DNA of 11,997 nucleotides from Abditibacteriales bacterium (GTDB lineage: Bacteria > Armatimonadota > Abditibacteriia > Abditibacteriales > JANWYM01). The stretch is from contig JANWYM010000071.1 of assembly GCA_025055355.1 (NCBI GenBank), positions 1 to 11,997 of the forward strand, read 5' to 3'. The notes beneath the pieces were generated by a model. It was not told the DNA's origin, did no database searches, and saw nothing but the letters and a program-made list of their open reading frames with translations. Numbering within the stretch: position 1 is the first letter of the stretch; every line of letters begins with the position of its first letter. Shown here piece after piece: positions 4,116-10,806 of this stretch. Position numbers and translations under genes: made by a program.

Positions 4116-4366
4116 CGTTGCACCTCCCGTCGGGCAAGCACAGAGGCTTGCCCCTACGTTGACAACCGCCTGCCCCGCCGCGCGCCTCCGAGGCGGCTGC
4201 GGGGAGAGACACGACGACCATCTCTCCGCAGGGCAACCGCCGCGTTGGCGAGACGCGCCGACGCGGGGCAGCGGTCGCCGGTCTGAGAACCCCACGGGCG
4301 TCGCCCATCGCGGAACGCGCCGAGCGCCGCAGACGAACGCACGTGCTCGGCAGGAGTCGAACCTGC

Positions 4367-4442
4367 TGGTGGAGAGCCACGGACTCGAACCGTGATTTCC
4401 GCCGTGCAAAGGCGGCGTCGTCGCCGATTGGACCAGCCCCCC
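4367..4442 (-). tRNA. tRNA-Ala (anticodon TGC), CCA encoded
   Basis: Revcomp reads GGGGGGC-TG-GTCC...-CCGCC-TTTGCAC-GGCGG-...CACGG-TTCGAGT-CCGTG-GCTCTCC-A-CCA. Acceptor stem is 7 bp and includes the G3:U70 alanine identity pair. Anticodon loop is CTTTGCAC, with T33 and TGC. T-arm is canonical. Total 76 nt. Confidence 0.85.
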
Positions 4443-4507
4443 TCCTGCAATCTGATTGCGTTCATGAACTCCGTGAACTCATGAACTCATAAGCCCACGC
4501 CTTCTTG

Positions 4508-4583
4508 TGGGGCGACTGGTGGGACTCGAACCCACTCGACGAGAGCCACAGTCTCGCGTGCGCGCCGTTACACCACAGTCGCC
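4508..4583 (-). tRNA. tRNA-His (anticodon GTG) with a genomically encoded G-1 and CCA
   Basis: Revcomp reads G-GCGACTG-TG-GTGT-AACGGCGC-GCAC-G-CGAGA-CTGTGGC-TCTCG-TCGA-GTGGG-TTCGAGT-CCCAC-CAGTCGC-C-CCA. Acceptor stem is a perfect 7 bp. The extra 5' G opposite discriminator C73 is the histidine hallmark. Anticodon is GTG. Confidence 0.85.
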
Positions 4584-4674
4584 ATGTTTATCACTCTCGC
4601 GCATCCCCTTGCCCACCCTCGTCCCGCTTCGGGTTCGGGACTACCGCGCTGCGCACGAATGGCATCACGAACGT

Positions 4675-4750
4675 TGGTGAGGGCGGTGGGACTCGAACCC
4701 GCAATCCTCAGGTTGAAAGCCTGAGAAGTTCACCGTTCCTCCACTGCCTC
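4675..4750 (-). tRNA. tRNA-Glu(TTC)-like gene with imperfect acceptor and T stems; possible pseudogene or non-canonical tRNA
   Basis: Revcomp reads GAGGCAG-TG-GAGG-AACGGTGA-ACTT-C-TCAGG-CTTTCAA-CCTGA-GGATT-GCGGG-TTCGAGT-CCCAC-CGCCCTC-A-CCA. Anticodon arm is perfect, with TTC flanked by T33/A37. D-loop has GG. T-loop is TTCGAGT. The acceptor stem has two mismatches (C5-C68, A6-G67) and the T-stem has one C-A mismatch. Confidence 0.5.
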
Positions 4751-4805
4751 GAAAGAAACATGAACCCCCTGAACCCATGAACTCTTGAACCCTTGAACCT
4801 CTATG

Positions 4806-4881
4806 TGGCGGGGACGACGGGATTTGAACCCGTGACCTCTGGCTTGACAGACCAGCGTGCTGACCCCTGCACCACGCCCCC
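4806..4881 (-). tRNA. tRNA-Asp (anticodon GTC), CCA encoded
   Basis: Revcomp reads GGGGGCG-TG-GTGC-AGGGGTCA-GCAC-G-CTGGT-CTGTCAA-GCCAG-AGGTC-ACGGG-TTCAAAT-CCCGT-CGTCCCC-G-CCA. All stems pair, with one G-U in the acceptor. Anticodon is GTC with T33/A37. Confidence 0.85.
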
Positions 4882-4949
4882 GGTTCGATTTTGGATTTTG
4901 GATTTTGGATTGCGGATTGAGTGACCCCAAAATCCGCGATCTAAAATGA

Positions 4950-4988
4950 AAAGCCCCCTGTCGAATCTCCTTCTCGACAGGGGGCTTT
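4950..4988 (-). terminator. Strong rho-independent terminator: 15-bp perfect GC-rich stem aaagccccctgtcga/tcgacagggggcttt with a 9-nt loop
   Basis: Perfect 15-bp inverted repeat 4950-4964 / 4974-4988. On the minus-strand RNA the stem is followed by UUUUCAUUUUAG. It lies 35 nt downstream of the small ORF stop (5024) and upstream of the tRNA cluster. The flanking A-tract and T-tract would also allow it to terminate plus-strand readthrough. Confidence 0.7.
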
Positions 4989-5023
4989 GGGTGTTGCTGA
5001 TGAGTGATAGGAGACGAACCGTC

Positions 5024-5218
5024 TCAGCGCACTATGCGCTGGCTCACCCCCTGTGCAAAGAAGGCGTCCTGCTCCTGACCGTTACGCTGCGCCAGATTGG
5101 CGACGGATATGGGTAATGAGCAGCGTTCGGCGGATGTGCAAAGGCGCAGGGCACTGAACCATTTCGATTCGTGTCCTGGCTGTGTGACGCCTAATTGCAT
5201 GTTCACGAGGTGAACCAT
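5024..5218 (-). CDS. Hypothetical small protein (64 aa, MVHLVNMQLGVTQPGHESKWFSALRLCTSAERCSLPISVANLAQRNGQEQDAFFAQGVSQRIVR); may instead be the body of a non-coding RNA
   Basis: ATG at 5216-5218 is preceded by GAGGAG (5230-5235), which is contributed by the end of repeat copy A. The stop is at 5024-5026 and the strong terminator follows 35 nt downstream. A putative promoter lies at 5331-5359. Codon usage is weaker than in neighbouring genes (two TTA and two ATA codons), so coding status is uncertain. Confidence 0.25.
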   Translation of the reverse strand: MVHLVNMQLGVTQPGHESKWFSALRLCTSAERCSLPISVANLAQRNGQEQDAFFAQGVSQRIVR

Positions 5219-5232
5219 TGACAGCTTCGCTC

Positions 5233-5312
5233 CTCTGAAAATCGTCCTCGTCCTCATCGTCGTCCTCGTTCTCGAACCGCAAAAACAACTGAGGACGAGG
5301 ACGACGACGATC
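5233..5312. repeat. Copy A of a structured palindromic repeat family (5'-CTCCTCTGAAAATCGTCCTCGTCCTC...CTCGAACC...GAGGACGAGGACGACGACGAT-3')
   Basis: 14-bp perfect stem tcgtcctcgtcctc (5242-5255) / gaggacgaggacga (5291-5304) with a 35-nt loop containing CTCGAACC. The left 27 nt are 26/27 identical to copy B (10612-10638). It lies between the putative promoter at 5331-5359 and the RBS/start of the small ORF, so it would sit in the 5' leader. Confidence 0.7.
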
Positions 5313-5330
5313 GCAGTGACAACGCGCTTG

Positions 5331-5359
5331 ATTATGCTAAAATCTTCCCAGCGCATCAA
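5331..5359 (-). promoter_or_regulatory. Putative sigma-70 promoter for the small-ORF/sRNA unit: -35 TTGATG (revcomp 5354-5359), 17-bp spacer, -10 CATAAT (revcomp 5331-5336)
   Basis: Minus-strand sequence reads TTGATGcgctgggaagattttagCATAATcaagcgcg. The predicted TSS (~5324) places repeat copy A at the very 5' end of the transcript. Confidence 0.35.
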
Positions 5360-5441
5360 CCGCCTGCGATAAAAAATCTGCTGCCTTAGACGACGGCGGG
5401 CGCGGGAATGTTCCCTCGTCTTCACCGATAGGATGTCGGCG

Positions 5442-6401
5442 CTACTGTTCCGCCAGCCAGCGTTCCGCCTCAATCGCCGCCATGCAACCCATGCCCGCCG
5501 CCGTCACGGCTTGGCGGTAGATATGGTCCACACAATCGCCCGCCGCGAACACGCCAGGGATTTTCGTGCGCAGGCGCGCGTCGGTGATGAGATAGCCCTG
5601 TTCATCGAGGTCGAGTTGCCCCTTGAAGAGGTCAGTGTTGGGGATATGCCCCAGCGCGTAGAACACGCCGTCGTAGGGATAGTCCCACTCCTCGCCGGTT
5701 TTGACGTTCTTCAGGTGCGCCCCCTCAAACTTCTCGCTGCCGTTGAAGTGCGTCACGATGGTGTTCCACACGAACTCAATCTTGGGGTTTTTGAACGCCC
5801 GCTCCTGCATGATTTTGCTGGCGCGCAGTTGGTCGCGGCGGTGGATGACATACACCCTCGTCGCGTAGTGCGTCAGGAACAACGACTCCTCCATCGCGCT
5901 GTCACCGCCGCCGATGACGGCGACCTCCTTGTCACGGTAATACCATCCGTCGCAGGTCGCACAGGACGACACGCCCGGCGTTTTGCCGAACCACGCTTCC
6001 TCGCCGGGCACCTGCAACATGCGCGGACGTGCGCCGGTGCAGATGATGACCGTCCTCGCGTAATAGTCCCTCTGCCCGTCGGGATACTCCGTCGCGGTGA
6101 CCTGGAACGGATATTGTTGCAGGTCAACAGCGACGACCAACTCATCAATCGTCTCCGCCCCGAACCGTTCCGCCTGCTTGCGCATGATGCCCATCAGTTC
6201 GGGACCTTTGATGCCGTGCTCGAAGCCGGGGTAATTCTCAATCTCGGTGGTCATCATCAATTGACCGCCCGGTGGCATGAACTTGTTCTCCGGGTCGCCG
6301 CTGAACAGCAGCGGTTTCAAGTTCGCCCGCGCCGCATAGAGCGCTGCCGTCCACCCGGCGGGGCCTGACCCGATGATGATCACGTTGCGCACCTCAGACA
6401 T
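5442..6401 (-). CDS. trxB: Thioredoxin-disulfide reductase (NADPH), 319 aa
   Basis: N-terminal FAD site VIIIGSGPAGWTAALYAAR. Redox-active CATCDG motif. NADPH site VIGGGDSAMEE. C-terminal GVFAAGD. GGAGG sits 7 nt upstream of the ATG at 6399-6401. Confidence 0.92.
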   Translation of the reverse strand: MSEVRNVIIIGSGPAGWTAALYAARANLKPLLFSGDPENKFMPPGGQLMMTTEIENYPGFEHGIKGPELMGIMRKQAERFGAETIDELVVAVDLQQYPFQVTATEYPDGQRDYYARTVIICTGARPRMLQVPGEEAWFGKTPGVSSCATCDGWYYRDKEVAVIGGGDSAMEESLFLTHYATRVYVIHRRDQLRASKIMQERAFKNPKIEFVWNTIVTHFNGSEKFEGAHLKNVKTGEEWDYPYDGVFYALGHIPNTDLFKGQLDLDEQGYLITDARLRTKIPGVFAAGDCVDHIYRQAVTAAGMGCMAAIEAERWLAEQ

Positions 6402-7424: not shown

Positions 7425-7608
7425 GCTCTAAACTTTTGCGTTTCGCGCTTTTCTCCCTCCCTGCTGCAGGAAAACGTCATGGCGAGCGGAGCGAAGCCAT
7501 CCCCCTACGGCGGAGATGGCGGCAGCGGCGGGGATGGCTTCGCTCCGCTCGCAATCACAGGCATTTCCGCGGAAAGGGCAAAGCGCAAAAGTTGAGTCTG
7601 GCTCTAAA
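7425..7608. repeat. ~170-bp nested palindromic intergenic element: 23-bp perfect inverted repeat (7482-7504 / 7530-7552, 25-nt loop), 10-13-bp outer inverted repeat (aacttttgcg 7431-7440 / cgcaaaagtt 7584-7593) and 8-bp direct repeats gctctaaa (7425-7432, 7601-7608)
   Basis: gcgagcggagcgaagccatcccc pairs with ggggatggcttcgctccgctcgc as exact reverse complements. The outer arms and flanking direct repeats were read directly. It sits between the convergent genes ending at 7290 (+) and 7604 (-). On the minus-strand RNA the big stem is followed by CAUGACGUUUUCC, so it could act as the M50 gene terminator. Confidence 0.6.
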
Positions 7609-9827: not shown

Positions 9828-10601
<774 letters not shown>

Positions 10602-10610
10602 GTTCTCTCC

Positions 10611-10683
10611 TACTCCTCCGAAAATCGTCCTCGTCCTCGTCCTCGAACCTCACGAACAACCGACGACGAGGACGATTTTCATG
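10611..10683. repeat. Copy B of the structured repeat family: 16-bp stem gaaaatcgtcctcgtc (10620-10635) / gacgaggacgattttc (10665-10680) with a 29-nt loop containing CCTCGAACCTCAC. On the minus strand it abuts the SDR gene RBS
   Basis: Arms are perfect reverse complements. The minus-strand RNA reads G-AAAAUCGUCCUCGUC-[loop]-GACGAGGACGAUUUU-C-GGAGGAG-uaggagagaac-AUG, so the hairpin base is 1 nt from the Shine-Dalgarno of the SDR gene. Confidence 0.7.
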
Positions 10684-10741
10684 CGGCGTGGTGTCTCGTT
10701 CGGGACAGGAACAACTCCCTTGACAATAACCACCCTCGCCC

Positions 10742-10806
10742 TCCCGAAGCGTCCTCGTCGTCTTCATCCTCGAACCTCACAAACGACCAACAACGAGGAG
10801 GATTTT
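10742..10806. repeat. Copy C of the structured repeat family (a more degenerate tandem duplicate of copy B), lying just after the glutamine-synthetase stop on the minus strand
   Basis: The 40-nt core cctcgaacctcacaaacgaccaacaacgaggaggattttg (10768-10807) is 35/40 identical to copy B cctcgaacctcacgaacaaccgacgacgaggacgattttc (10641-10680). The 5' arm cgtcctcgtcgtc is degenerate. It lies between the glnA-family stop (10814) and copy B. Confidence 0.65.

Follow-up and report, generated by a model that had tools for sequence, protein, structure and literature searches.

A conserved structured RNA ahead of a tRNA array in Abditibacteriales, a candidate conditional-termination leader

In the leader-peptide attenuators of Enterobacteria (trpL, hisL, pheL, thrL and ilvL), the promoter is followed by a Shine-Dalgarno (SD) sequence and a short open reading frame (ORF) of 14-32 codons with a run of regulatory codons, and the genes under control are those of amino-acid biosynthesis. 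Region 1 of the leader lies inside the ORF; pairing of regions 1:2 and 3:4 leads to termination and pairing of regions 2:3 to read-through, the terminator standing right before the regulated genes. Terminating riboswitches and T-box leaders, which are conditional terminators (concept as in PMC5314783), have a conserved multi-helix sensor domain closed by a P1-like helix. The 3' strand of this helix can instead form an antiterminator, in competition with an intrinsic terminator further downstream. We describe here an RNA unit whose layout, judged from its sequence, matches those of leader-peptide attenuators and terminating riboswitches, yet which is not a full member of either family. It lies on the minus strand of an 11,997-nt contig (JANWYM010000071.1, hereafter the window) of the metagenome-assembled genome 'Abditibacteriales bacterium', between the trxB gene (6401..5442; Pyr_redox_2 Pfam match, E=3e-55) upstream and the genes for tRNA-Asp, Glu, His and Ala (4881..4367), the presumed regulated genes, downstream. 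This is the position that a first-pass annotation of the window, made from the sequence alone, had given for it.

As far as we know, the prevailing view is that bacteria regulate tRNA synthesis almost exclusively when transcription initiates, by stringent and growth-rate control. In the tRNA operons that we know of, the leaders are short and unstructured and regulation acts on initiation (stringent control, Fis); they do not have a structured, terminator-bearing leader of ~300 nt. The thrU-tyrU-glyT-thrT-tufB operon of E. coli is a tRNA operon with a co-transcribed non-tRNA gene. We know of no description of structured attenuator leaders for tRNA arrays, and our searches of the full-text literature gave no earlier example of an attenuator or a structured leader in front of such an array.

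The reading that we favour, with about as much doubt as conviction, is that the unit is a non-coding conditional-termination leader RNA of the tRNA operon. Transcription would start at a strong tRNA-operon promoter and run through a leader of ~300 nt (~375 nt in the window species, owing to an inserted hairpin repeat) to a conditional intrinsic terminator placed just before the first tRNA gene. Region 1 (5216-5184) would pair with region 2 (5070-5042) to form a rod that closes a distal domain (5183-5071). With the rod closed, the terminator (regions 3:4, 4988-4950) would form, polymerase would stop and a stable, hairpin-ended RNA of ~300 nt would be freed. If region 1 were occupied or the rod destabilised, region 2 would pair with the 5' arm and loop of the terminator as an antiterminator, and polymerase would read into the tRNA array. 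If this is true, a conserved structured leader with competing terminator and antiterminator before up to 22 tRNA genes would add a different layer of control, and the leader would be a directly testable RNA element.

The first-pass annotation had described a compact unit made of a promoter, a repeat, a ribosome-binding site, a 64-codon ORF and a terminator, all of which we found on the minus strand at the coordinates that it gave. We compared the window with the related loci L001/L003, L089/L090, L141, L143 and L147, which together represent 5-6 species-level variants and are the only ones in which the unit was detected. The promoter, the fold and the terminator are kept in all of them, and the unit is thus more than a chance arrangement; conservation of the hairpin and the terminator had been suggested as a check, and was borne out for the terminator but not for the 5' hairpin repeat.

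The sigma-70-like promoter (TTGATG-17-CATAAT, 5331..5359) is present as first proposed and matches 9 of the 12 consensus positions. The orthologous sites of the relatives are better: TTGACG-17-TATAAT (11/12) in L001, L090 and L141, and TTGACA-17-TATAAT (12/12, with a TG) in L143. Scans of the window gave two promoter-like sites versus 0.4 expected and two terminator-like sites versus 1.6 expected, which are weak statistics when taken alone. The cross-species alignment also revealed conservation from the trxB stop codon to the -35 box (5360..5441); the part of this region that adjoins the box contains the AT-rich sequence GATTTTTT. In L143, a beta-helix gene sits between trxB and the RNA unit, and ~70 nt upstream of the -35 box are still conserved despite this intervening gene. 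Thus, the upstream region belongs to the promoter of the RNA rather than to the 3' end of trxB, and the element behaves as an independent unit that moves with the tRNA genes and not with trxB.

No other forward-strand sigma-70-like promoter was found across the leader and the tRNA array in L001, L090, L141 or L143. A separate tRNA promoter was also sought in the window, where the sigma-70 scan found none; the 68-nt spacer between the U-tract and the first tRNA gene holds a weak CAAAAT, which has no counterpart in the relatives. As no other promoter was found for the tRNA genes, the leader promoter appears to be that of the array, and the simplest reading of these sequences is that the near-perfect promoter before the leader is the tRNA operon promoter and the RNA is the operon leader.

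The leader is followed by 4 tRNA genes in the window, 2 in L001, 7 in L090, at least 8 in L147, where the contig ends, 14 in L143 and 22 in L141, where tuf follows closely; these different sizes reflect rapid turnover or assembly differences. The L141 array includes tRNA-Ile(tat) and tRNA-Leu(taa). Most spacers between tRNA genes are only 3-6 nt long. Like thrU-tyrU-glyT-thrT-tufB and long tRNA arrays, these loci thus appear to have one promoter for many tightly packed tRNA genes, with tuf as a further likeness in L141. The distance from the U-tract to the first tRNA gene is ~5-10 nt in L089, L141 and L143; it increases to ~28 nt in L001 and to 68 nt in the window. tRNA genes that start a few nucleotides past the U-tract, together with a terminator that has a strong, conserved alternative partner, fit an attenuator leader and not a stand-alone gene. 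The proposal of a discrete, self-contained unit of ~375 nt therefore holds for its geometry, which is real and conserved, but the unit is probably not stand-alone, since its promoter appears to serve the tRNA array.

The intrinsic-terminator hairpin (4950..4988, minus strand) had been described as a perfect 15-bp stem 35 nt past the ORF stop codon. Its position, the hairpin and the U-tract are as described, but the stem has 16 pairs, namely 15 Watson-Crick pairs and one G-U pair, with a 7-nt loop followed by TCATTTT. The U-rich tail, UCAUUUUAGA (4940..4949), is kept in all relatives, and two pairs of the stem show compensatory changes across species. The loop carries a conserved AGAAG, which is unusual for a terminator loop. 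We defined the 5' arm and loop of this hairpin as region 3 (AGCCCCCUGUCGAGAAGG, 4969..4986), the candidate antiterminator partner of region 2 (CCUUCUUUGCACAGGGGGU, 5046..5064). The latter is an invariant segment, to which the stretch ACAGGGGG belongs, and makes up both the 3' strand of the rod and the candidate 5' strand of the antiterminator.

The predicted 2:3 duplex consists of a 9-bp GC-rich helix and 6-8 more pairs, with energies of -24.9 to -29.1 kcal/mol in five species. Dinucleotide shuffles of the upstream RNA gave means of -15 to -17 kcal/mol (standard deviation 2.5), and the energy of the real duplex was equalled in 1, 8, 0, 1 and 0 of 1000 shuffles in the five species. The duplex is as strong as the terminator hairpin (-23 to -29 kcal/mol). 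When transcripts were cut before the 3' arm of the terminator, the antiterminator fold was within 0-8 kcal/mol of the rod, and in L143 it was the minimum free energy (MFE) fold. Wherever the region 2 strand changes between C and U, its pairing with the loop purines is preserved. The helices of the leader fit the layout of a conditional terminator, with mutually exclusive 1:2, 2:3 and 3:4 pairings in our models, that is, the anti-antiterminator, antiterminator and terminator arrangement described for conditional terminators (concept as in PMC5314783). We also looked for an antitermination box of the boxA type: judged by eye, CCUUCUUUGCACA matches E. coli boxA poorly and varies between species.

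The predicted RNA of the window has an MFE of -173.7 kcal/mol (z-score -7.3). In the consensus fold, the 5' end (GGAGCGAA...) pairs just past the stop codon of the 64-codon ORF, and an irregular rod with a branched distal tip encloses the whole ORF. The 5' strand of the closing helices, GGAGCGAAGCUGUC (5220..5233), contains an SD-like GGAG and pairs with 5010..5023, of which the part that faces GGAG has diverged in L143. One pair of the closing helix shows a compensatory G-C to A-U change, and another is G.G, U.G or C-G. Region 1 (5184..5216), which begins at the G of the ORF start codon and spans codons 1-11, forms the 5' strand of the inner rod helices and pairs with 5042-5070 in both the MFE and the consensus folds. 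The distal conserved domain (5071..5183), delimited from the alignments, is composed of an 11-bp hairpin, a junction, a long stem and an apical loop. The 11-bp hairpin shows a compensatory G-C to A-U change, and a 34-nt block of the domain is nearly invariant, with A/C at one position in L003 and changes at three positions in L143. A small hairpin, AGCGC-loop-GCGCU (5025..5041), overlaps the ORF stop codon; its six stem pairs (helix 11) are invariant and every column of its loop varies. An unstructured linker (4989..5009) leads from the rod to the terminator.

The consensus fold has 95.5% of its cells paired in six sequences, versus 37-46% in slid controls. Compensatory changes occur in five pairs, of which two belong to the terminator and one each to the closing helix, the 11-bp hairpin and a small helix. 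Only 1 of 500 shuffles reached the covariation score. Variable columns are depleted in helices (odds ratio 0.26, p=2e-4), as they are when single-sequence folds are used (odds ratios 0.28-0.46, p 0.0003-0.036). Covariation is nevertheless limited by the small number of similar sequences. In three species pairs, the rod diverges by 0.14, 0.15 and 0.08 per site, versus 0.31, 0.25 and 0.22 at the four-fold degenerate sites of trxB. The linker, with 0.29, 0.38 and 0.19 (a range of 0.19-0.38), is about neutral. The nucleotide sequence of the RNA thus appears to be under constraint, at roughly half the neutral rate, and the unit is most likely a folded non-coding RNA rather than a protein gene.

Searches of Rfam at gathering thresholds with the window, L001 and L090 detected only the tRNAs, and cmscan of the element from the window and L001 against 4227 Rfam families at E<=10 returned only chance matches to the terminator hairpin. 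One of them, PyrG_leader, scored 20-23 bits against a threshold of 65 bits and was set aside. No support was obtained at E<=10 for 6S RNA, the signal recognition particle (SRP) RNA, RNase P RNA, tmRNA, T-box leaders or large ornate RNAs. Beyond the lack of an Rfam match, the element differs from T-box leaders in that, by inspection, its antiterminator bulge does not have UGGN and no specifier loop is recognisable. It shares with riboswitches and T-box leaders a conserved structured domain (5071-5183) and the closing helix whose 3' strand would double as an antiterminator strand, but it has additional outer closing helices and a hairpin between region 2 and the terminator, and tRNA genes downstream.

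The strong promoter and terminator and the stable, rod-like fold would also fit the main rival explanation, which we consider unlikely, namely that the unit is a structured small RNA that stands alone, is terminated constitutively, acts in trans or has a housekeeping function, and only happens to lie upstream of the tRNA genes; it could be a divergent 6S-like or another protein-binding RNA. The tRNAs would then be made by leak-through or from an unrecognised promoter, and the hairpin would mainly protect the 3' end of the small RNA. 6S RNA (SsrS) also has a strong sigma-70 promoter, a length of ~200-300 nt, 5' and 3' ends paired into an irregular rod and a terminator hairpin, and the long, nearly invariant block of the distal domain is expected of an RNA that is functional by itself. 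Furthermore, whether the RNA ended at the terminator or was cut by RNase P at the adjacent tRNA, the product would presumably be nearly the same. However, neither RF00013 nor any related or other family (SRP, RNase P and tmRNA included) matches at E<=10, and the fold has a branched, multi-helix junction in place of the large central bubble of 6S-type RNAs. This explanation also does not account for the conserved complementarity between the 3' strand of the rod and the 5' arm and loop of the terminator, strong complementarity to its own terminator not being a feature of 6S RNA, or for the missing second promoter of up to 22 tRNA genes.

The ORF inside the rod (5024..5218, minus strand) had been regarded as unannotated, but the NCBI record of the genome already names it hypothetical protein NZT92_05480. 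As first described, GAGGAG (5235-5230) is followed by an ATG at 5218 that opens 64 codons, with the TGA stop codon at 5026-5024; the SD and the AUG are 11 nt apart, which is among the longer spacings in this genome. The two TTA and two ATA codons pointed out earlier can be read directly in the sequence. A genuine small-protein gene with a functional 64-residue product is a highly improbable explanation of the unit. Gene callers predict the ORF in every species, it is intact with SD-like and ATG signals, the order of the G+C contents at its three codon positions (GC1, GC2 and GC3) is gene-like, and its frame outscores the other two. Its substitutions tell otherwise. Between the window and L001, its 29 differences are distributed as 12/9/8 over the three codon positions, with a ratio of non-synonymous to synonymous divergence (dN/dS) of 0.95 at a dS of 0.175, versus 16/10/78, a dN/dS of 0.076 and a dS of 0.49 for trxB. 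Similarly, its variable columns in six sequences are distributed as 19/16/18, versus 28/13/113 for trxB in three species. The amino-acid replacements are radical (e.g. Q/W/L/S, W/R and L/P), and long blocks, including one of 34 nt, are frozen at all three codon positions. Both its GC3 (0.66 vs 0.74-0.83 in neighbouring genes) and its codon log-odds (-0.05 vs +0.36 to +0.50) are below those of real genes.

The ORF product has no Pfam match, and a profile search among 1.84 billion representatives returned the ORF itself and two spurious repeat proteins only. Of these two, one is a translated tandem repeat and the other an armadillo-repeat protein, and both have a short ANLxxRN motif in common with the ORF product. 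In a search of 5.8 billion proteins, the ORF product had one other 90% cluster, which is internal to the lineage. Thus, the homology and dN/dS checks suggested beforehand give no sign of constraint at the amino-acid level and no real homologue outside the lineage. The unit is most likely not a small-protein gene, and an ORF product under selection is not supported by these sequence comparisons. Of the two possibilities that the first-pass annotation had left side by side, a small protein and a structured non-coding RNA with a fortuitous ORF, the substitution pattern and the dN/dS fit the second better. The case also shows how the substitution patterns of a few relatives can tell a structured RNA from what a gene caller has labelled a 'hypothetical protein'.

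An ORF that does not encode a selected product might still be translated. In a ribosome-mediated leader-peptide attenuator, the peptide would be irrelevant, a ribosome on the SD, the AUG and the first ~11 codons (region 1) would free region 2 to form the antiterminator, and transcription of the tRNA array would track ribosome loading or decoding speed; a dN/dS of ~1 is what one would expect of it. The ORF is open with identical start, stop and length in every species, without a single indel in 195 nt, versus ~7 indel events in ~120 nt of transcript outside it. The AUG and the AGGAG are invariant, the latter even in L143 where its pairing partner has diverged, region 1 begins at the start codon, the rare UUA at codon 9 is invariant, and the 1:2 / 2:3 / 3:4 arrangement is the classical one. 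Nevertheless, we find this explanation improbable. When substitutions were placed at random, the ORF was kept with P 0.13-0.45 per pair of sequences, which corresponds to a survival of ~0.94 per substitution. The ~66 substitutions estimated on the tree bring the probability of retention to ~0.015, but it rises to ~0.1 once the path between the window and L001, found via the ORF itself, is removed, and a 36-codon GTG ORF in another frame is likewise kept in all species. Given this adjusted probability and the retention of the other-frame ORF, retention of the 64-codon ORF is weak evidence; both it and the lack of indels hint at translation without reaching significance. In addition, the SD-to-AUG spacing is long for the genome, the closing helix sequesters the SD in most species, and the invariant third codon positions of the distal domain are left unexplained.

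The comparison with characterised leader-peptide attenuators points the same way. Promoter, SD and short ORF, the position of region 1 inside it and the terminator right before the regulated genes are alike. However, the ORF has 64 codons here and spans regions 1 and 2, which are separated by a conserved structured domain of 113 nt; no run of regulatory codons is present, and codons read by the tRNAs of the array are not enriched in the ORF (fractions of 0.75 vs 0.62-0.69 in other genes, and 0.45 vs 0.40-0.44). Translation is putative, and tRNA genes take the place of amino-acid biosynthesis genes.

Returning to the conditional-termination leader, we infer from the modelled folds that termination in it is conditional. 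Candidates for the effector are molecules bound by the distal domain (a metabolite, an alarmone, a protein or a tRNA) and a ribosome on the SD and AUG at region 1. A bound ligand, protein or RNA is favoured by the frozen state of the distal domain, and a ribosome by the conservation of the SD and AUG, which extends to L143 although GGAG has lost its pairing partner there to divergence. We put forward only tentatively, as somewhat doubtful, that the unit is a previously undescribed sensor RNA that feedback-controls the main tRNA array through a terminator/antiterminator switch, either through a riboswitch-like domain that senses a growth or starvation signal, a tRNA or a protein or by reading out ribosomes at the SD and AUG. 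If so, tRNA supply would be under post-initiation control, in a phylum without a cultured model for such control.

Several points temper this reading. The evidence is purely computational and comes from a narrow, uncultured lineage, and the effector is at the candidate stage. A strong default terminator before essential tRNA genes is counter-intuitive. In three species the antiterminator is less stable than the rod, by 3-8 kcal/mol. As regions 2 and 3 are nearly invariant in only 5-6 close sequences, the antiterminator has no true covariation, and its second helix pairs a pyrimidine-rich strand with a purine-rich one in registers that shift between species. No Rfam family matches the element, and the promoter scans covered the sigma-70 consensus only.

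The element occurs only within a small lineage of uncultured bacteria that carries the label Abditibacteriales, and its general importance is uncertain. The 90% cluster of trxB has five members, and no trxB relatives were found with identities between 65% and 91%, which indicates that the lineage is isolated; the trxB of its nearest named relatives, Fervidibacter, is ~62-63% identical. Searches with nhmmer did not detect the structured RNA in 80 trxB loci, among which the best listed match (63%) is that of Candidatus Fervidibacter canadensis, and revealed no further copies in any of the compared loci, with one copy per locus. At a trxB locus with 65% identity, the gene neighbourhood differs. 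In the Candidatus Fervidibacter canadensis locus (L007, 5918-6115), whose trxB is 63% identical, a tRNA-Val gene also follows trxB; it has an ordinary short leader with a promoter-like ...CATAAT ~20 nt before it, and nothing there corresponds to the structured RNA. A metagenome scan with the 18-mer TCCGTCGCCAATCTGGCG gave at least 50 stretches, and among the matches listed two were real, both already known. A phage origin was considered as well, and blastn against phages gave no match.

The repeat that the first-pass annotation placed at the 5' end of the transcript is a hairpin repeat of 76 nt (~5241..5316, minus strand; repeat families D1, D2 and I16), whose inverted arms (5254-5273 and 5291-5310) lie after the presumed transcript start. 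It is indeed there, but only in the window species: it is missing at this site in all relatives and thus represents a recent insertion. Related copies occur in the window at 10613-10680 and 10737-10806, in a family of ~70-76-nt hairpins of the form GAAAATCGTCCTCGTCCTC ... GAGGACGAGGACGATTTTC. Both the copy at 5241-5316 and that at 10613-10680 abut a GGAGGAG-type SD, of the 64-codon ORF and of a 257-residue gene starting at 10601, respectively. L089 and L090 have a different, 80-nt palindromic insert, GTCATTCTGAACGAAGCGAAGAATC..., after the trxB stop codon. A palindromic element of the window at 7476-7558, GTCATGGCGAGCGGAGCGAAGCC...GGCTTCGCTCCGCTCGC, with 29-nt arms that are 93% complementary, resembles this insert and looks like a second family of mobile hairpins.

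Repeats and inserts are also found within the tRNA arrays. Short tandem motifs are specific to the tRNA spacers of the window species: three copies of AAATCCA separate the terminator from tRNA-Asp (4888-4915), and 8-9-mers similar to GGGTTCATG are present between tRNA genes, at 4759-4800 and 4463-4496. In L090 (5494-5690), a tRNA-like gene is split by an insert of ~130 nt that carries a long inverted repeat; its 5' half is like tRNA-Arg(gcg) of L001, and its 3' half ends with ...GGTTCAATTCCCGCCGCCCCAACCA. Repeat copies related to this insert are found at ~L090 6626-6690 and 6730-6775. Further, at L090 ~6200-6255, a 3' remnant of tRNA-His (...GTTCGAGTCCCACCAGTCGCC) follows an insert of ~230 nt with its own SD and ATG, which suggests a disrupted tRNA gene.

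Lastly, the ~240 nt between tRNA-Ala and the start of an SPFH/Band_7 gene (4125-4366 of the window, minus strand; 6461-6700 of L001) are 87% identical between the two loci. The region has no Rfam match at E<=1. It contains a hairpin with compensatory changes, GGAGAG...CUCUCC in the window and GGGGGG...CCCCCC in L001, and may represent a second structured RNA, which could be a tRNA-operon trailer or the 5' untranslated region of the Band_7 gene.

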